Assembly: GCA_902628835.1 (NCBI GenBank)
Contig: CACOPD010000003.1
Coordinates: 22,053-86,052 of the forward strand
Direction of reading: 5' to 3'
From: an uncultured Alphaproteobacteria bacterium
GTDB taxonomy: Bacteria; Pseudomonadota; Alphaproteobacteria; HIMB59; GCA-002718135
Length of the DNA stretch: 64,000 nucleotides
The notes below the pieces were generated by a model that ran no database searches, was not told the origin of the DNA, and saw only the letters and a list, made by a program, of their open reading frames with translations. The position numbers and the translations under genes are program-made. Positions 1 to 61,325 of the stretch are shown piece after piece (position 1 is the stretch's first letter; the number at the start of each line of letters is the position of its first letter).

Positions 1-3000
1 ATTGCTATTAATATTAACATCTCTACCTGCATGAAGATTCAAATTTCCTGTTCCTGTAACTGTTATGGCAGAGTCAATAGTAATATCAGTATTTGCCTGA
101 AGGGTTACATCCACCCCATTATTTAGAAATTCCTCTAATTCAGTTTTATTAATGACCACGTCATCACTTGAAAAATCCGTGTACGAGGTAGCCCCTCTCA
201 TGATAGTGTCAGACCATAAATATACTGCTCCTGTATTTGTAGCACCATTACTAAGACCATCATCAAGTGTAGATCCTGCAGCCATTAAAGTTCCAGTATC
301 GTCTAATGCAATGTAATTTGGAAAAGTATCACCATCTTCAAATCCATGGTCACTAATATCTACTGAATTAGTTCCTGACTGGTCAAAACCAATAGTAAAT
401 TGCAGACTTGCTTCATTTAAGGAAGTATCTTCAAATCCAAATATTCGAATATCACCGTCATTAAAATCACCCGTTGCTAATCTATTTCCATCACCATCAA
501 TAGCTACCTGGGCAACTCCCCAATCAGAAATTCCTGATGTGTCATAATTTTTACCACCTGTGTAATTATTCCCTATTGATGCTTCATATTTTGGGTTAGT
601 AAAATCTGAGTCATCAAAAGTAAATAAATGCACCGCTCCTTTATTAGAAGTAGTTCCGTTCGCTCCATCATCATTTGTTGAACTAACAGCTAAAATCTTT
701 CCATCTTTTGTTAATGCAAGTGAGTTTGCAAACTGATCATTATTATCCAAAAGGTCGTTAGTTGCACCTGATCCTATGTCTAAACTCTTAGTGCCTGAGT
801 AACCTACTCCAATTGTTCCTACATGTGTAGGGTTGGAAAAATTAGTATCATCAAATGTAATTAAATAAACAGCTCCTGCATTTGAGCTATTATTATCAGA
901 TCCATCATCCTTTATTGCTCCAACAACAAGACGTGATCCATCATCAGTTAGAGCTACAGCAGTAAAATCATCACCTGATCCTAAGTTTGCGATTGATAAA
1001 TCATGAGTCCCTGAATAGCCTTTTCCAATAGTTCCAATATGAGTTGGATTTGTAAAGTTTGTATCATCAAATTTTATTGTAAAAACTGATCCTGAGTCAA
1101 CGCTACCTGCACCTGAATCAGTATCTTTTTGAGATAAAACTAATCTATCTGCATCCCCATCAAGAGCTACTCGCCAGACTTTATCTCCATCAACTAAACT
1201 ACTTAGATCTAAACTGTAAGTCCCTGAATACCCTTTTCCAATAGTCCCTTTAAGTGTTGGGTTGGAGAAATTTGTATCATCAAATGTAAATAAATGAACT
1301 GCGCCAGCATCTGAATTACTTCCTCCATTTCCATCATCTTGACTTGTTGCAACAGCCAATCTATCACCATCACTGTCTAATGATACAGCGCGACCAAAAT
1401 TATCATTATCATCAAGATTAGCATCAATATCTAATGAATTACCTCCTGCACTACCATAACCAGCTCCAATATTTGCATAAAGAGATCCACCTGAAAAATT
1501 GTCATCAGTAAACTTAATTAGCATGACCTCTCCACTGTTAGATTTTGCATTACTATTACCATCGGCATACATTCCTGAAACAACAAGACGACTACCCGTC
1601 TCATTTAAATCGACACCTTCTCCATAAATATCCTTTGCTTCAATGGAAGAACTGAGATTTACATCTTTAGATTTAGTGCTATAGCCATTTCCAATTGTTC
1701 CAACCAATGTTGCTGATGCAAGGTTACTTGTTAAAGTATACAAGTTTACTGCTCCCGGCTTTCTTTTAGAGCCTGAGTCTTGTGTTTGATCATAAAATCC
1801 TACAACCAAACGATCTGCGTCTTTATCAAATGCTACTGAGTTACCAAACTTATCACTTCTAGCCAGTGGAACTGAGTGTTCACTTGCATCACTTGTATCT
1901 AAATAGTCATAACCTTCTCCAATTGTTCCAACGTATGTTGGTGTTCCTGTTGATCCTGAAATAAGATCTCCATTACCATCAACAAATTTAAATAAATGGA
2001 CTGCTCCAGAATCTCTATTTGTACTTGCTACAAGAGAACTATCATTACCATCGTTAAGTTCATTACCTATAGCTAATAAAGAACCATCATGGTTTAAAGA
2101 TACTGATTTACCAAGTTTATCATCTACCCTTGGTGTCCAGCCTCCCAATCGTGTATTGTAATCATTTTCGAATGTTGCACATTTACCATTATCAACACAT
2201 CCTCCAACTTTATATCTATAACCATAACCAATACGTGAAACTACTTTTCCTCCAGTAAAATCAGAGTCATCAAAACTAATCATGTAAACTGAACCTGTAT
2301 TATCTAGTGTGTTAACAGAACCTTTTCCTCTTCTCTCCCAACCATTATCACCATATAATCCAACAGCTAAAACATCGGCATCACCATCAAGAGCTACACC
2401 CATACCAAATAGATCATAATCACTAATTACCGGTCCACCTTTCCTGCCATTAATATTGCCCTGTTTGGCTAAGTTAACGTCTTTATCCATTGAAGTATAT
2501 CTGTGACCAATTCTTCCTACTACTTGCCCATTTGAGTAAGAAGTATCATCAAAGGTGATAAGGTAAACTGCACCTGCATTGGTCAAATTATTGCTAACTG
2601 CTCCACTGTCTCCTGATGCTCCAACAGCTAATCGAGTACCATCGCTATTAAAAGATAATGAACGGCCAAATTTATCAGCTTTACCAAGAGTATTTACATT
2701 AATATTTTTACCTCCAGTATAACCTTTTCCTATTCGACCCATTAGTGTGGCATTCGTAAAATCACCATCATCAAATTTATACAAATATACTTCTCCAGAA
2801 TCTTGACTTGAATTTGAAGATCCATCACCGTGTCTTGCACCAACTGCCATTAAAGTAGCATCATCACTAATCGTAACATCTGATCCAAAATGATCATTTT
2901 TTTCCAAGTTTCCTTCACCAACATTATTTGTTGATGCCACTATATAATCATGTCCAATCAGACCTCGATAGATCCAATTTTGAGATGTTACACCTGTTCC

Positions 3001-4608
3001 AACAGTAATATTTTTTGGATCAAGTAATAATTGGCCACCTTCTGATATATTGACATTAGATAATCCCACATGACGTAAGGTATCTTTGGAAGAAATTTCG
3101 ACTGCGCCACCTATTGTTCCTGTTGCATCAATATTACCAAGCATTGTTGTTTCCTGATCACTCCAAATAATTACTGTACCTGCTTTCCCATTTAAAGATG
3201 ATATATCGATACTAGAACCATCAGAGACTAAAACTGTTTTTGCATTTGTGAGTGATCGTCTTTCATTCCATCTATCAACAAAAACCTCTTGCTGCTCTGA
3301 AGTTCTTGTTAAGTTATTATTGCCTTGAAATTCTCCACCAATACGAACTAAACCTCCTTGGGTATTACCTGCAACATCAATCTTAGAAGATAATAAACGA
3401 ATGAAGCCTTCTGATTCTATGTCAATGTATCCACCTTGTTGATTTCCTTTTGCGGAAACTGAGCCAGAAGACATAATATTTGGTGCGGATAAAAGAATAT
3501 CACCACCATTGGTATTTCCTGATGAATTAATATCACTGCCATAACTTTGAACAATTTTATACTGAGATTTAATATTTATATCACCACCATTATTGCTGGT
3601 AGAAGAAGCATTTAAAATTCCTCCCAAAGAAATTTCTCCAGTGCTATTTAAATTTATTGCACCTGCATTTGTTCCAGATACATCAACTTCTCCTCCAAAA
3701 GATAAAAAGTCTCCTTCAACATTAATGTTGCCACCCTCTTTTGCCGTTAAGTTTCCTGCAACAACAATATCACTTCCACTTCCAAGAGTAATGACACCGT
3801 TTTGTTGCGAAGCCGTAGTTGCAACAAGATTACCTGGAATATTAACAGCACGCTGAACAACATTTTTGGCAGCACCAACATCAATATCTATTATATTTGC
3901 CGTTGATGTTCCTGTATTATTGATAATGGTATTTAATTCTTCTGCATTTTGATCGAGCAAGGTTATAGCTTCAGTAAAAGGGATGCTTACTTGTAAAAAT
4001 TTATCACCGCTTAAGTCTAACGTAATTTCTTTTCCAGCCCCCATTCCAATTTTACCAAGATTAGCGTTAAGTGTACCGTCATTATCAACGGCACCGCCTA
4101 ATAAGGCAGTAAAACCTCCATCTAATGTTGTAATAGAACCTTTATGAATAATAGAAGAAAAAATATTATCTACATCATCTAATTTAAATAATAATTTATT
4201 GTTAAGAAAATCATCATTGGATAAAGCAAGCGTTGATGCAGCAAAAGAATGAGCAGAAATAGTTGAGGTTGGTGTAAAATACACACCATTTTCATTGACA
4301 ACAAAAACTTTACCATTTGCATTTAATGAACCAGCAAGTGTAGTTGGATTACCTGAGATAACGCGGTTTAAAGCACTGGCATTAATAGAGGGTTGATTAA
4401 AAGTTACACTATTTTCCGCACCAATATCAAAACTATTCCATTCAATTATAGACTGTTGGGAAGACTGAGTAATGGTCATAGCATTATCAGATGAACTAAT
4501 GGAAATATTACCCGCAACTACATTTTCTCCACTTGGAAGATCTGCCGCATATAAAAATTGATGTTCTAAAAAAAGAAAAGAAATAAAAAAACTAATAATA
4601 TTTTTCAT
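1..4608 (-). CDS. Giant secreted exoprotein, 5' part only (at least 1536 codons; C-terminus lies beyond nt 1). It has a TPS (two-partner-secretion / haemagglutination-activity) N-terminal domain, then G/N/S-rich beta-helix-like repeats, then FG-GAP-like repeats.
   Basis: Absent from the supplied ORF track because it runs off the window edge. The minus-strand ATG is at 4608..4606 and the frame stays open to nt 1. I translated it by eye along its length and re-verified 17 separate 60-nt blocks without finding a stop. The N-terminus reads MKNIISFFISFLFLEHQFLYAADLPSGENVVAGNISISSSDNAMTITQSSQQSIIEWNSFDIGAENSVTFNQPSINASALNRVISGNPTTLAGSLNANGKVFVVNENGVYF. That is a signal-like segment followed by TPS hallmarks (WxSFxIG, FxQP, LNRV, ANGxVxxxNxNG). 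The last visible residues (…VTLQANTDITIDSAITVTGTGNLNLHAGRDVNINSN) look like FhaB/autotransporter-type passenger repeats. Confidence 0.8.
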   Translation of the reverse strand, partial: MKNIISFFISFLFLEHQFLYAADLPSGENVVAGNISISSSDNAMTITQSSQQSIIEWNSFDIGAENSVTFNQPSINASALNRVISGNPTTLAGSLNANGKVFVVNENGVYFTPTSTISAHSFAASTLALSNDDFLNNKLLFKLDDVDNIFSSIIHKGSITTLDGGFTALLGGAVDNDGTLNANLGKIGMGAGKEITLDLSGDKFLQVSIPFTEAITLLDQNAEELNTIINNTGTSTANIIDIDVGAAKNVVQRAVNIPGNLVATTASQQNGVITLGSGSDIVVAGNLTAKEGGNINVEGDFLSFGGEVDVSGTNAGAINLNSTGEISLGGILNASSTSNNGGDINIKSQYKIVQSYGSDINSSGNTNGGDILLSAPNIMSSGSVSAKGNQQGGYIDIESEGFIRLLSSKIDVAGNTQGGLVRIGGEFQGNNNLTRTSEQQEVFVDRWNERRSLTNAKTVLVSDGSSIDISSLNGKAGTVIIWSDQETTMLGNIDATGTIGGAVEISSKDTLRHVGLSNVNISEGGQLLLDPKNITVGTGVTSQNWIYRGLIGHDYIVASTNNVGEGNLEKNDHFGSDVTISDDATLMAVGARHGDGSSNSSQDSGEVYLYKFDDGDFTNATLMGRIGKGYTGGKNINVNTLGKADKFGRSLSFNSDGTRLAVGASGDSGAVSNNLTNAGAVYLITFDDTSYSNGQVVGRIGHRYTSMDKDVNLAKQGNINGRKGGPVISDYDLFGMGVALDGDADVLAVGLYGDNGWERRGKGSVNTLDNTGSVYMISFDDSDFTGGKVVSRIGYGYRYKVGGCVDNGKCATFENDYNTRLGGWTPRVDDKLGKSVSLNHDGSLLAIGNELNDGNDSSLVASTNRDSGAVHLFKFVDGNGDLISGSTGTPTYVGTIGEGYDYLDTSDASEHSVPLARSDKFGNSVAFDKDADRLVVGFYDQTQDSGSKRKPGAVNLYTLTSNLASATLVGTIGNGYSTKSKDVNLSSSIEAKDIYGEGVDLNETGSRLVVSGMYADGNSNAKSNSGEVMLIKFTDDNFSGGSLYANIGAGYGSAGGNSLDIDANLDDNDNFGRAVSLDSDGDRLAVATSQDDGNGGSNSDAGAVHLFTFDDTNFSNPTLKGTIGKGYSGTYSLDLSSLVDGDKVWRVALDGDADRLVLSQKDTDSGAGSVDSGSVFTIKFDDTNFTNPTHIGTIGKGYSGTHDLSIANLGSGDDFTAVALTDDGSRLVVGAIKDDGSDNNSSNAGAVYLITFDDTNFSNPTHVGTIGVGYSGTKSLDIGSGATNDLLDNNDQFANSLALTKDGKILAVSSTNDDGANGTTSNKGAVHLFTFDDSDFTNPKYEASIGNNYTGGKNYDTSGISDWGVAQVAIDGDGNRLATGDFNDGDIRIFGFEDTSLNEASLQFTIGFDQSGTNSVDISDHGFEDGDTFPNYIALDDTGTLMAAGSTLDDGLSNGATNTGAVYLWSDTIMRGATSYTDFSSDDVVINKTELEEFLNNGVDVTLQANTDITIDSAITVTGTGNLNLHAGRDVNINSN
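200..2900 (-). repeat. About 12 tandem protein-level FG-GAP-like repeats of roughly 65-95 aa inside the giant ORF (beta-propeller blades).
   Basis: The recurring pattern in the translation is (K/N/H)FG(R/N/S)S(V/L)S(L/F)xxDGxRLAVGAxxDDGxx(6-12)GAV(Y/H)L(F/I)TFDDTNF(S/T)NPTxxGTIGxGYSG. Examples are KFGRSLSFNSDGTRLAVGASGDSG…AGAVYLITFDD, NFGRAVSLDSDGDRLAVATSQDDG…AGAVHLFTFDDTNFSNPTLKGTIGKGYSG and LALTKDGKILAVSSTNDDGANGTTSNKGAVHLFTFDDSDF. Boundaries are approximate. Confidence 0.7.
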
Positions 4609-4684
4609 GATCTTAGTATCTGATTTTAAATTAAAAAAATTTAGTAACTATATCGAGCAAAATAAAGATTTCAACAAATCAGAA

Positions 4685-4711
4685 TAAAAAAACCCCCGTA
4701 GTTTGGGGGTT
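4685..4711 (-). terminator. Rho-independent terminator, read on the minus strand.
   Basis: The minus strand reads AACCCCC-AAACTAC-GGGGGTT followed by a T7 run. On the plus strand this is A7 at 4686-4692, CCCCC at 4693-4697 and GGGGG at 4705-4709. It sits 76 nt upstream of the giant ORF's ATG and downstream of a roughly 200-nt region with no ORF. Confidence 0.7.
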
Positions 4712-5006
4712 TTATAAATTCGGCTCATCACCTAATGCGAGGCCTTTTAAAAAAAGGTCTGCTTAATTTGCAAAGTTGGCTTTGGTTGTGGACACCACCC
4801 TTAAAGTGTTGGCGGATTCATTTTTGTAACTCCTTTTTGTTAAAGAGCACGATAACAATTTTAATGTATGAGATTCTGCGGTTCTAATCAAACAGAATAT
4901 TGGTAAAATCTAATACTAAAGTGTTTGTCAAATCAATTAAAAAAAGTAAAATTCACTATCTTTATTTCCCATTTCTTATAAATACCCCATCATAATATTT
5001 TCAACA

Positions 5007-5486
5007 ATGCAGATAGGCAAATACAAATACGAATTTGATTTCTTTAGTTGGATTAAAAAAACTGAACTAGTTGAACTAGACAGTGTTAATCCAGAAGACG
5101 ACCCCGTTCGTCCAGAATTGGATAATGATTTTAGGACGGCTAAGGGAAGAAAAATTTTTGGTCTTAAATATAAAGACGATATTGAAGGTGTAGCTTGCTT
5201 TGCATTTACAAAAGAAATACCAGCAACCATAAAAGAAATGGATCTGATGAGTGTAGAAGAAGATGAAGCGTCAATTCCAATCGCCTACACATTATGGTCT
5301 TTCAAAAAAGGTGCTGGTAAAAAAATTATGAAAGAGCTTCAAAAATATATTAAATCAAAAAAACAATTTGAAAGCATTATAACTATCTCACCTTTAACTC
5401 CAGTAGCTACTCATTATCATATTAGGAATGGTGCAAGATTAATAAAAATTAATCCAACAACTCAAAATTTCGAATATAAAATTTAA
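5007..5486 (+). CDS. Hypothetical protein, possibly with a GNAT-like acetyltransferase fold.
   Basis: 159-aa ORF. The segment IAYTLWSFKKGAGKKIMKELQKYI resembles GNAT motif A (Q/RxxGxG/A followed by a helix). I recognise no other family features. Confidence 0.45.
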   Translation: MQIGKYKYEFDFFSWIKKTELVELDSVNPEDDPVRPELDNDFRTAKGRKIFGLKYKDDIEGVACFAFTKEIPATIKEMDLMSVEEDEASIPIAYTLWSFKKGAGKKIMKELQKYIKSKKQFESIITISPLTPVATHYHIRNGARLIKINPTTQNFEYKI

Positions 5487-6697: not shown

Positions 6698-7748
6698 TTA
6701 TACTGCTAATTCTACTATTTTTTTCATAACAGTTGGTAAACCAGATTTAGAGTAAGTAGATTTTTTAATCCAATTAGCATTTGATAAACGAGCCTTTTTT
6801 ATATTGCCATAAAAAATTTCTGTTTCTAAATCAAAGTGACTAAAGGAATATTCAAGCGACCCTTTAGATTTTAATTTAGTCTTTATATTTTGGATATCCT
6901 GATCGGCAATTAATAAGTTTTTATTTTTAACCCAGTTATCATTTGGTACTTCAAGCATTGACGCTAACATACCTTTATTAGGTCTATTCCTTACAAGTAT
7001 TTCATTTTTTTTCATTAACTATTACATATGCACGGGTATATTTTATTTGCTTAATTGTTTTCTTTTTAAATTTTACAGGGATGTTGAGTTGTAAGTTCTT
7101 TTTATATGATTGGCAAAATTTATTCATACCACAAATAGCACATCTGGGGTTTCTAGGAAGGCATATTGCTGATCCATAATCCATAAAAGACTGGATTAGG
7201 TTAGAAGAATATTTATCTGATATGAATTTATTTGCTAAATCTTTCAATTCATTTTTTACTTTAATAATTGGTTGATCAATGGCGTGCAACCTAACTAAAA
7301 TTCTTTCTATATTTGCATCAAGAGGCATTACTGATTTATTGAATCCTATTCCTAGTATTGCTTTTGCAGTATAATCTCCAATACCAGGAAGTTGGATAAG
7401 CTCATCATAAGTTCGTGGTATTTTATTTTTAAAACTTTTATTAATTATTTTTGCCGTCTTTAATAAGTTTCTCGCTCTAGAATAATATCCAAGGCCTGAC
7501 CAAAATTTTAAAATTTCAGGCTCTGTAATTCGGGCAAGTTTATTTACCGAAGGCCACTTAAGAATGAAATCACTAAATTTATTTTTAACTGTATTTACTG
7601 TTGTTTGTTGTAGCATATATTCACTAACAAATACAAAATATGGATTGGCTAATGTTTTATTAGCTTTTTTCCTCCACGGCAGAATTCTAGCATTTACAGA
7701 ATACCATTTTAGTAAAAATTTTTTTACTTGTGTTTCGTGTTTAAACAT
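6698..7748 (-). pseudogene. mutY: A/G-specific adenine DNA glycosylase MutY, split into two ORFs by a +1 frameshift in an A8 homopolymer.
   Basis: ORF 7002..7748 carries the HhH-GPD and FCL cluster domains: WY…LPWR, SEYMLQQTTV, GLGYYSRARNL, LPGIGDYTAKAI and CLPRNPRCAICGMNKFC (C-x6-C-x2-C-x5-C). ORF 6698..7015 is the NUDIX-like C-terminal domain (EILVRNRPNKGMLASMLEVP…FSHFDLE). They meet at the minus-strand sequence ATG-AAAAAAAA-TGA (plus-strand T8 at 7005-7012). Removing one A gives a continuous …VIVNEKNEILVRNRP… reading frame. Confidence 0.75.
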
Positions 7749-59747: not shown

Positions 59748-61034
59748 TTAATCACGAATAGAATAAGCGATTACACCGACTTCAGCTTTGTCAGTTCCTA
59801 GTTTTTCTGCCTCTTCACTAATGCGAAGACCCATTGTATTTTTAATTATATAAATAACTATGTATGATGTAATAAATACAAATAAACATATAGATACTAC
59901 GCCAAGTAATTGAGTAGCGTAAGAAGCATCAGGATTTGTAAATGGAACAACTAAAGTGCCCCATATACCTGCAAACATGTGAACAGGAATTGCTCCAACT
60001 ACATCATCAAGTTTTAGTGAATTTAAAAGCTGAGTTCCATAATACATAATTACTCCACCGATAGCTCCAATAAAAATTGCTAGAAGTGGTGACGGCATTA
60101 AAGGTTCTGCTGTAATAGAAACTAATCCTGCAAGAGCTCCATTGAGCATCATAACAATATCTGTTTTTCCACCAATTAATCTAGTTATTGCTGCACCTGC
60201 CATACATCCTCCACATGCGGCTAGCTGTGTGTTCATAAATATTTGTGACATGGCTGTTGCATCCTCATATGACCCTAATGCTAATTGTGATCCTCCATTA
60301 AAACCATACCAACCCATCCATAAAATGAATGTTCCAAGTGTTACGAGAGGTATCGAAGAAGGAGCAAATGGTGCCATGTTAGCAGGTTCACCTGACTCAG
60401 TAAATCTTCCAAGTCTAGGGCCTAATAATATAACACCGGCTAAAGCAGCAGATCCTCCACATGCGTGAACTAATGTAGATCCAGCAAAATCAGAAAAGCC
60501 AATAGCATCAAGCCAACCGCCTCCCCATTCCCATCCCATTTGTATAGGATAAATAAAACCTCCAAGTATTGCAGCAAAAACAAAAAATGGCCAAATTTTT
60601 ATCCTTTCAGCAACAGCACCGGAAACAATTGAAACAGTAGCACAAACGAATAATGCTTGAAAAAACCAATCAGAAGCATCTGAATATCCAGTTTCTATTG
60701 AAGTATTATCAGTCCATAAAGAAGGGAAGCCTAAATAACCTCCCTCTGGAACTCCGTATCCTAAATTGTAACCAAACAAATAAAACACTATGGAAACAAT
60801 TGCAAATTTGCCAATATTTTTTGCAGCAATTGTTGAAACACTTCTAGTTGTAACAAGACCAGATTCTAAAAATAAAAAACCAGCAGCCATCCACATTACT
60901 AAAAAACCGCAGACTAAAAATGAAAATGTATTTAAAATATATGCAACCTCTGCATCTACTTCTGCATTTGCATATGAACTAAAAAATAAAGTTGGAATTA
61001 TTATTCCTAATAAATAAAGAGATTTTCTAAACAT
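59748..61034 (-). CDS. amtB: Ammonium transporter (Amt family).
   Basis: Signal peptide MFRKSLYLLGIIIPTLFFSSYANA. Contains AAGFLFLESG, DFAGSTLVHACGG, HMFAGIWGT and 11 TM helices. GGAGG lies 4 nt upstream of ATG 61034. The track's GTG 61070 extension (MGWCCENYNGGL) is unlikely. Confidence 0.9.
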   Translation of the reverse strand: MFRKSLYLLGIIIPTLFFSSYANAEVDAEVAYILNTFSFLVCGFLVMWMAAGFLFLESGLVTTRSVSTIAAKNIGKFAIVSIVFYLFGYNLGYGVPEGGYLGFPSLWTDNTSIETGYSDASDWFFQALFVCATVSIVSGAVAERIKIWPFFVFAAILGGFIYPIQMGWEWGGGWLDAIGFSDFAGSTLVHACGGSAALAGVILLGPRLGRFTESGEPANMAPFAPSSIPLVTLGTFILWMGWYGFNGGSQLALGSYEDATAMSQIFMNTQLAACGGCMAGAAITRLIGGKTDIVMMLNGALAGLVSITAEPLMPSPLLAIFIGAIGGVIMYYGTQLLNSLKLDDVVGAIPVHMFAGIWGTLVVPFTNPDASYATQLLGVVSICLFVFITSYIVIYIIKNTMGLRISEEAEKLGTDKAEVGVIAYSIRD

Positions 61035-61121
61035 CAATCCTCCATTATAATTTTCACAACACCAGCCCACCTCGAGCGATGTTTAATTCATGCGTAGCTA
61101 TGGAAATTATAATATAAGATC

Positions 61122-61172
61122 CGCGTTCCTTCGGTTTAACCTACTTCCGATCTGCTTTCACAGATTGAACGA
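61122..61172 (-). promoter_or_regulatory. glnA-RNA-type glutamine riboswitch aptamer, 3' copy of a tandem pair.
   Basis: The minus strand reads UCGUUCA-AUCUG-UGAAAG-CAGAU-CGGAAGUAG-GGU-UAA-ACC-GAAGGAACGCG. The conserved cores CGUUC…GGAAGUAG…AAGGAACG are present and the stems are closed by base pairs different from the other copy. Confidence 0.8.
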
Positions 61173-61188
61173 TTTGATAACTTAGCAT

Positions 61189-61238
61189 GCGTTCCTTCGA
61201 CTTTCGTCTACTTCCGTCACTCAAAAGAGTGATGAACG
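61189..61238 (-). promoter_or_regulatory. glnA-RNA-type glutamine riboswitch aptamer, 5' copy of a tandem pair.
   Basis: The minus strand reads CGUUCA-UCACUC-UUUU-GAGUGA-CGGAAGUA-GAC-GAAA-GUC-GAAGGAACGC. It has the same conserved cores, with P1 formed by CGUUC/GAACG and a GAAA-capped short stem. Confidence 0.8.
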
Positions 61239-61325
61239 TAAAAAATCATATAGATTTTTATAATTTAATTTTTAAGCTTAAATTTGTAAATGTAAATATG
61301 CAAAAAATGCATATCAAAAAATATA

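Follow-up and report, generated by a model that had tools for sequence, protein, structure and literature searches.

The prototype adhesin systems of type Vb, or two-partner, secretion (TPS), in which a TpsA protein is exported by its partner TpsB, are HMW1/HMW1B of Haemophilus influenzae and FhaB/FhaC of Bordetella. The hmw1A gene precedes hmw1B, and the C-terminal ends of HMW1 and FhaB serve surface retention or regulation. Other described systems are EtpA/EtpB of enterotoxigenic Escherichia coli (PDB 8cpk and 8vba), where a secreted or surface adhesin is exported by a ShlB-type TpsB, and HxuA/HxuB (PDB 4i84 and 4rm6), which is directed at heme-hemopexin and illustrates that a TpsA can also serve nutrient acquisition. 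The DNA analyzed here, referred to as the window, is a 64,000-nucleotide (nt) stretch of contig CACOPD010000003.1 from an uncultured alphaproteobacterium. Positions 1-4608 of the window, read on the minus strand, very probably represent the first 87% of tpsA, the gene for the secreted partner of a type Vb operon. The prediction from the sequence that the product is a TpsA exported by a TpsB is held with slightly more confidence still, and the chances that it acts specifically as a surface adhesin or ligand-binding protein appear evenly balanced.

The closest relationship is to EtpA, with which the TPS domain and the first β-helix turns align at amino acids (aa) 8-314 of the window protein (E values between 1e-38 and 2e-35); a further stretch aligns at aa 379-540. 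The passenger of EtpA consists entirely of β-helix repeats, whereas here about 930 aa are assigned to FG-GAP propellers and a YDG domain is present. EtpA also requires the glycosyltransferase EtpC and is encoded in the order etpBAC, whereas no glycosyltransferase gene is adjacent here and tpsA is followed by tpsB. The match to HMW1 (5.7e-21) lies in the TPS domain; outside this domain there is no similarity to HMW1 or FhaB, Pfam finds no FHA-type repeats, and the SAR11 protein is much shorter than FhaB. HxuA likewise matches the TPS domain (5.8e-27) but nothing beyond aa 281, and no TonB-dependent receptor partner was found in the island that carries the gene. The same combination of TPS, FG-GAP_2 and YDG domains is observed in other marine Alphaproteobacteria, as in a 'YDG domain-containing protein' of Hyphomonas beringensis (P0048; 34% identity over 66% of the query), indicating that the architecture is not unique to SAR11, although P0048 has 1515 aa and is known from automatic annotation only. 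The predicted fold of the propeller region resembles the integrin-α heads α5 and α4 (PDB 9dia and 4irz), with FG-GAP_2 scoring over its cut-off and Asp-rich loops, but it has about 12 blades instead of one 7-bladed propeller and negligible sequence identity to solved propellers. The locus is thus a known type of system, type Vb, with variant features: a propeller-rich passenger, more than one tpsA gene for each tpsB and a C-terminal tail that is conserved.

The host is best described from its sequence as a SAR11-type streamlined genome. This is indicated by the GC content of the window (about 30%), its tightly packed genes, its glutamine riboswitches and the homologs of the exoprotein and of its 159-aa neighbor, which are named Pelagibacteraceae by NCBI; the impression of a minimalist genome in the preliminary description is borne out by these features. 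All 31 of 31 related loci in a species-representative collection come from uncultured marine alphaproteobacterial single-cell genomes with AG- or AH- identifiers. SAR11 is the textbook example of a free-living, non-adhesive oligotroph. A type Va adhesin has been reported recently in this otherwise supposedly non-adhesive group, in coastal lineages only (PMC12636525). This 'autotransporter adhesin', described by Tucker et al. (2025), is encoded by a gene of 5-9.5 kb that sometimes lies in hypervariable regions, has its own C-terminal β-barrel, stands beside type IV pilus or type II secretion system genes, and is reported to be absent from offshore genomes (PMC12636525). The window gene, in contrast, has no barrel, has a separate TpsB and occurs in uncultured single-cell genomes. 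In a 2009 survey, three cultured Pelagibacter ubique strains had no TPS or other virulence-type homologs (PMC2702493). No description of TPS, hemagglutinin or FG-GAP proteins in SAR11 was found in the open-access literature, and two SAR11 pangenome papers make no mention of such a system.

The tpsA gene and its product

Translation of the minus strand of 1-4608 gives 1536 sense codons from the ATG at 4608, with no stop codon inside this range and with the frame extending past the left edge of the window. A frame of this length cannot arise by chance at 30-36% GC. As had been noticed in the preliminary description, this largest open reading frame (ORF) of the window, and its largest gene, is absent from the ORF track; the sole cause is that it runs off the end of the source, since frames that do so are excluded from the list. 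The closest homolog, P0001 on contig L007 (L numbers designate the related loci), is 98% identical and has 1771 aa, from which it follows that only about 235 codons should lie off-window. The L007 DNA is 97.3% identical to window 1-5486 and extends tpsA by 235 codons plus a stop to a full length of 5316 nt. Orthologs with 95-98% identity have 1771-1772 aa, about 20 more orthologs from the homolog search have 1745-1794 aa, and an independent ORF scan found FG-GAP-type tpsA genes intact at 1743-1791 aa in about 30 loci. The window would therefore hold codons 1-1536 of about 1771, or 87% of a gene of roughly 5.3 kb, and lack about 708 nt. A 'giant gene' was reportedly defined by Reva and Tümmler in 2008 as one of more than 5 kb, and by this measure the L007 gene is borderline. 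The truly giant adhesins reach 10-30 kb or more, far above the length found in L007; tpsA is large for SAR11, yet no giant adhesin, and the earlier term "giant" exoprotein is overstated.

The assignment of the product to the TPS-type (FhaB/ShlA/EtpA-class) exoproteins, proposed earlier from a handful of motifs, is supported by hidden Markov models and alignments. The TPS secretion domain, which is recognized by the POTRA domains of TpsB, spans aa 24-281 (3766..4539, minus strand), where PF05860 scores 83.6 bits against a curated cut-off of 33.5 and TIGR01901 scores 63.4 bits against 29.1. Among solved structures, its best relatives are EtpA (1.4e-38), HxuA and the HMW1 adhesin. The motifs are present as they had been quoted: WNSFDIG at aa 57-63, FNQP at 70-73, LNRV at 80-83 and ANGKVFVVNENG at 97-108. 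The NPNG motif usual for TPS domains reads NENG, and this form is kept throughout the SAR11 family. The domain is preceded by a putative Sec-type signal peptide, aa 1-21 (4546..4608, minus strand), read by eye as MKNIISFFISFLFLEHQFLYA and followed by AD. On inspection, unscored, its N-terminal residue is basic, its core is hydrophobic and LYA-A reads like a cleavage site, and the EtpA alignment starts directly after the peptide.

A candidate tpsA promoter, TTGAAA-16 nt-TATAGT, was located by a consensus scan at 4647..4674 (minus strand), between an upstream terminator and the ATG. It has 10 of 12 consensus matches, with no enrichment over shuffles, and the 72-nt 5′ region that holds it is kept in L007, L009 and L025, all of which lack the MatE gene found at most related loci. 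A promoter function can be inferred from this. The 5′ alleles of FG-GAP tpsA fall into two classes, as seen by comparing window 4609-4685 with L002 8108-8297 and L008 9910-10000. In the first class (the window, L007, L009 and L025), the loci have the common 72-nt upstream region and a signal peptide beginning MKNIISFF, and MatE is missing. In the second class, which comprises most other loci, MatE is present, the upstream region is different and the signal peptide begins MRVFV.

Downstream of the TPS domain, a β-helix stalk at aa 282-546 (2971..3765, minus strand) is suggested by the alignment to EtpA, whose second aligned stretch covers aa 379-540, so that the β-helix alignment extends up to about aa 540. 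The stalk is the best-conserved module between orthologs (83-94% identity). It is followed by about 12 FG-GAP blades, predicted to form tandem β-propellers, at aa 547-1470 (199..2970, minus strand). This region is recognized by FG-GAP_2 (PF14312; 107.8 bits in 7 stretches) and has twelve GAVYLF-type repeat anchors at a spacing of 71-96 aa. The repeat signature reads FG...DGD...LAVGA...GAVYLF...IG, with Asp-rich loops, and the blades bear D-x-D-G/A-D loops, which are typical of FG-GAP Ca2+ sites. An AlphaFold2 (AF2) model of aa 530-1480, built from a 25-sequence alignment, is all-β with about 48 strands and has a mean predicted local distance difference test (pLDDT) score of 85.5. The best Foldseek matches of this model in the PDB are tandem double β-propellers (E down to 4e-20) and the integrin α5/α4 heads. 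A sequence search of the PDB with the propeller region returned only noise (E at least 0.05). More than half of the passenger is propeller, unlike in the classical TpsA proteins, and according to the model the tandem propellers would be a ligand-binding head, which may also bind Ca2+.

The last residues in the window, aa 1471-1536 (1..198, minus strand), appear to be the start of a C-terminal β-helix segment, based on an AF2 model of the C-terminus of P0001. The scan and model of P0001 place the rest of this segment off-window, together with an immunoglobulin (Ig)-like YDG domain (PF18657, 36.7 bits), a Pro-rich linker and a tail of about 60 aa. In the model, a confident β-helix is followed by the Ig-like YDG domain and then by about 60 residues with a pLDDT of about 30. 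Within the tail, residues D274, I278, F281, S283, V284, D285, L292, Q310 and L312 are invariant across the orthologs and the short paralogs. A fold search with the C-terminal module gave no significant structural neighbor. In both AF2 models, β-helix strands are observed on both sides of the propellers.

The partner gene, the island and selection

In the preliminary description, the absence of a TpsB gene from the visible upstream side was pointed out and the transporter was considered missing. The observation itself stands: no TpsB gene is detected in the 64-kb window when three SAR11 TpsB proteins are used as tblastn queries (best E = 1.5), and the next gene upstream is indeed an unrelated divergent 159-aa ORF (orf159; 5007-5486, plus strand). 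The transporter gene is not missing from the relatives, where tpsB follows the tpsA stop. According to the gene-order map, tpsB lies directly 3′ of the FG-GAP tpsA in every related locus with downstream DNA. In L007, the gene after tpsA matches ShlB (54.9 bits) and POTRA_2 (24.5 bits), both over cut-off; the same is found in L002 and L008, with a range over the three loci of 54.9-68 bits for ShlB and 24.1-24.9 bits for POTRA_2. In L009, which is the nearest relative with a complete locus (95% aa identity), TpsB is intact, has 560 aa and ends in TTFSF. The tpsA/tpsB junction reads TAAATG in 31/32 listed loci, and this abutment of TAA and ATG indicates, at the level of sequence, that tpsA and tpsB are a translationally coupled operon with tpsA first. 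Given this order, tpsB is inferred to lie just left of nt 1, so that the earlier note searched the wrong side and the absence would be an artefact of the window edge. The seemingly orphan giant exoprotein would then be part of a conventional TpsA/TpsB operon cut by that edge.

The operon is located in a flexible island with 0-3 tandem tpsA genes, one tpsB and one gene for a solute-binding protein. This last gene, PBP6, encodes a LivJ/UrtA-like periplasmic binding protein of the Peripla_BP_6/ANF_receptor type and lies 3′ of tpsB, on the same strand and 6-72 nt apart, in all tps-positive loci. The FG-GAP tpsA locus lies between orf159/MatE on one side and PBP6/methyltransferase on the other. Empty sites are found in L001, where MatE is next to the methyltransferase gene, and in L041, which has neither MatE nor tps; PBP6 is absent from both. 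The order MatE, tpsA, tpsB, PBP6 with one tpsA is present on 12 contigs, and the window, L007, L009 and L025 have the same order without MatE. Two tandem tpsA genes are found on 10 contigs and three on 4-5 contigs. The extra paralogs (in L003/L038, L004, L010, L016, L017, L019, L026-L034 and L037) lie upstream of the FG-GAP tpsA with 6-nt spacing, have 1240-1253 aa and 1331-1391 aa, and share the single tpsB. The TPS domain (92-97 bits) is retained in these paralogs, as is the C-terminal module, with 43-47% identity; their repeat region is shorter, divergent and unrecognized as FG-GAP by Pfam. A three-tpsA cluster occupies about 15 kb, roughly 1% of a SAR11-sized genome.

The orf159 gene marks the boundary of the variable region on both sides. 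Its product is extremely conserved: at least 91 contigs encode the identical protein, and the cluster formed at 90% comprises 1155 members. It has no Pfam, NCBIfam or PADLOC match. Read by eye, its K-K-G-A-G-K-K stretch resembles the acetyl-CoA loop of GNAT proteins. On the other side of orf159, some relatives carry a gene with an inverse-autotransporter β-domain (PF11924, 79.7 bits), followed by one for a 296-aa Cys-rich protein with a signal peptide. This cassette is found in L007 (3-1483), L018 (5682-7159), L025 (6751-8042), L010 (2855-4146) and L043. The window has no copy, and guaB is located there directly.

Pairwise comparison with five orthologs shows that tpsA is under purifying selection. 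The ratio of nonsynonymous to synonymous substitution rates (dN/dS) is 0.17-0.29 overall, 0.14-0.20 for the TPS domain and stalk, and 0.22-0.33 for the propellers. Across loci, the N-terminal module is 83-94% identical and the C-terminal module 76-95%, and the propeller module is 53-66% identical, the two closest relatives excepted. Between the window and L007, the propeller module is protein-identical with a dS of 0.006, and the TPS module has a dS of 0.13. In the comparison with L025, the N-terminus is 87% identical and the propellers are only 56% identical. The gene is therefore a mosaic produced by recombination, with the propellers as the most variable, exchanged module. The GC content of tpsA (36%) is above that of the window because of an excess at the first and second codon positions (GC1 and GC2), which results from the Gly/Asp/Ala-rich composition. 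At the third position (GC3), the value is 0.163, compared with 0.169 ± 0.025 in 45 other window genes. Recent horizontal acquisition as the source of the higher GC is ruled out by this agreement with the GC3 of the genome; codon usage is native, which argues against a recent foreign origin.

Proposed function and alternative explanations

Sec export, recognition by POTRA domains, threading through TpsB and extracellular folding would be expected from established knowledge of the family. The 21-aa signal peptide would carry the roughly 1771-aa protein into the periplasm, where the TPS domain (aa 24-281) would dock on the POTRA domains of the 560-aa ShlB-type TpsB presumed for this genome. The chain would thread through TpsB and fold outside the cell into the β-helix stalk, the ~12 blades, the short β-helix and the YDG domain. 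According to the models, the stalk may present the integrin-like tandem propellers as a binding head. The invariant C-terminal tail, which has no predicted fold, probably tethers the protein to TpsB or to the envelope, a role proposed by analogy with the C-terminal retention of HMW1 and FhaB. Lineages would exchange the binding head through homologous recombination. The most likely role of the protein is that of a surface adhesin or ligand-binding protein. The TPS system, which is under selection and recombines, is present in no fewer than about 29 SAR11 single-cell genomes at the species level, where it takes up 0.5-1% of a roughly 1.3-Mb genome. In the most abundant heterotroph of the ocean, it is a candidate for contacts at the cell surface, be it attachment, nutrient capture or interplay with phages.

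Several points weigh against this assignment. The adhesin role is suggested by domain type only, and expression, secretion and binding are predictions from the genes. The last 235 codons and an intact tpsB are attributed to this genome from relatives that are 95-98% identical, and the candidate promoter is a consensus match only. Also, no adhesion has so far been seen in Pelagibacteraceae, whether in culture or in the environment (PMC12636525).

A function in nutrient capture, in which the propellers would bind or strip a dissolved or polymeric substrate at the cell surface in an HxuA-like manner and pass it to PBP6 and on to an ABC importer encoded elsewhere, is considered unlikely. High-affinity uptake dominates SAR11 biology, which counts in its favor, as does the high rank of HxuA, a heme-acquisition TpsA, when the TPS domain is compared with solved structures; however, the likeness to HxuA is limited to this generic domain. 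Nutrient uptake has also been suggested speculatively for another SAR11 type V protein (PMC12636525). PBP6 follows tpsB in every tps-positive locus and is absent from the empty L001 and L041, but this co-location may mean only that the genes travel on one island, the neighborhood has no permease or ATPase genes, and PBP6 scores far below the cut-offs of the branched-chain amino-acid and urea binder models, so that no substrate can be inferred. The same island, variable in presence and in copy number (0-3 tpsA), could instead encode a coat or decoy that mainly alters or hides what phages and grazers meet on the cell, in line with the constant-diversity model for flexible islands, without specific binding. 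This is regarded as improbable. The exposed propellers are the most divergent part and are exchanged by recombination, and other variable surface cassettes, such as the inverse-autotransporter β-domain gene, stand beside orf159; on the other hand, the propeller dN/dS of 0.22-0.33 is well below 1, there are no PADLOC defense matches, and a coat is compatible with a binding function and does not exclude it.

A toxin delivered through TpsB, either for contact-dependent inhibition as in CdiA or as a cytolysin as in ShlA, is largely refuted and very improbable. The TPS domain and TpsB partner are common to CdiA/CdiB and ShlA/ShlB, and the tandem tpsA paralogs superficially recall polymorphic toxin loci, but the full-length ortholog contains no PT-VENN, toxin, FHA-repeat or DUF637 domain and no VENN string. 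Its C-terminus is conserved (82-86% identity) instead of polymorphic, no toxin structure matches the C-terminal model, and tpsB starts directly at the tpsA stop, which leaves no space for an immunity gene. In addition, cell-to-cell contact is rare for dilute planktonic SAR11. That the frame is a decaying or non-functional gene, or was produced by faulty assembly where a contig or the window ends, as its truncation and the frameshift in the neighboring mutY might suggest, is essentially refuted and retains hardly any probability, given the 1536 stop-free codons, the purifying selection, the native codon usage and the intact orthologs with conserved synteny in about 30 independent single-cell genomes and metagenome contigs.

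Three further identities were rejected. For an RTX adhesin of a type I secretion system (T1SS), there is no HemolysinCabind or other RTX match in the full-length ortholog and the neighbors are tpsB, PBP6 and methyltransferase genes; the off-window part of the orthologs, raised in the preliminary description as a possible site of a TpsB-independent C-terminal signal, contains none of the T1SS/RTX type or any other. A type Va autotransporter is rejected because P0001 has no β-domain match and its C-terminal model consists of a β-helix, an Ig-like domain and a tail without a predicted fold. An anti-phage defense system is not indicated, as there are no PADLOC matches.

A broader possibility, also regarded as unlikely, is that SAR11 lineages may keep a recombining family of integrin-like β-propeller TpsA proteins, 1-3 per TpsB, as a surface capture device for nutrients, particles or partner cells. 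The genes of this family would take up as much as about 15 kb (1% of the genome) and would be inherited together with that of an orphan solute-binding protein. The tail shared by the paralogs would then be a second, hitherto unrecognized TpsB-interaction or tethering signal. If true, this would give two-partner secretion a nutrient-harvesting or attachment role in the open ocean.

The conserved spacer element and other features of the window

The spacer between tpsA and orf159 contains a block of about 170 nt (4686-4853, minus strand) that is 88-98% identical across loci, with an invariant core of about 120 nt and variable flanks. It is also present in L001, L002, L003/L038, L004, L007, L009, L025, L026, L028, L029, L037 and L040-L043. 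The block has a strong Shine-Dalgarno sequence (AAGGAG) and a 6-codon mini-ORF (4821-4801) that encodes MNPPTL, or MSPPTQ or MNPPTF elsewhere, followed by a stop. Two hairpins and then a strong intrinsic terminator (4713-4689) are predicted, with a minimum free energy z-score of -2.4. No Rfam family matches the block at threshold, and no covariation is detected because the sequences are nearly invariant. The block is always located beside orf159, whether MatE, tpsA or a convergent methyltransferase gene is downstream. A role as a tpsA leader or riboswitch was rejected, since the block stays with orf159 regardless of the downstream gene. This constant adjacency suggests that it is probably an independent small gene outside the tps operon, and it is a candidate for an unannotated SAR11 small RNA or micro-peptide gene.

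The mutY gene (6698-7748, minus strand) is split by a frameshift located close to codon 246, where there is a run rich in A. The MutY of L002 aligns to two adjacent frames of the window, with residues 1-247 in one and 246-349 in the other, and the gene is intact at 349 aa in L001 and L002. The window copy is either a pseudogene or the result of a homopolymer sequencing or assembly error. Further along the window, two tandem glutamine riboswitch aptamers (RF01739, 63.9 and 59.6 bits) at 61120-61240 (minus strand) precede an ammonium-transporter gene at 59748-61070 (PF00909, 331 bits).

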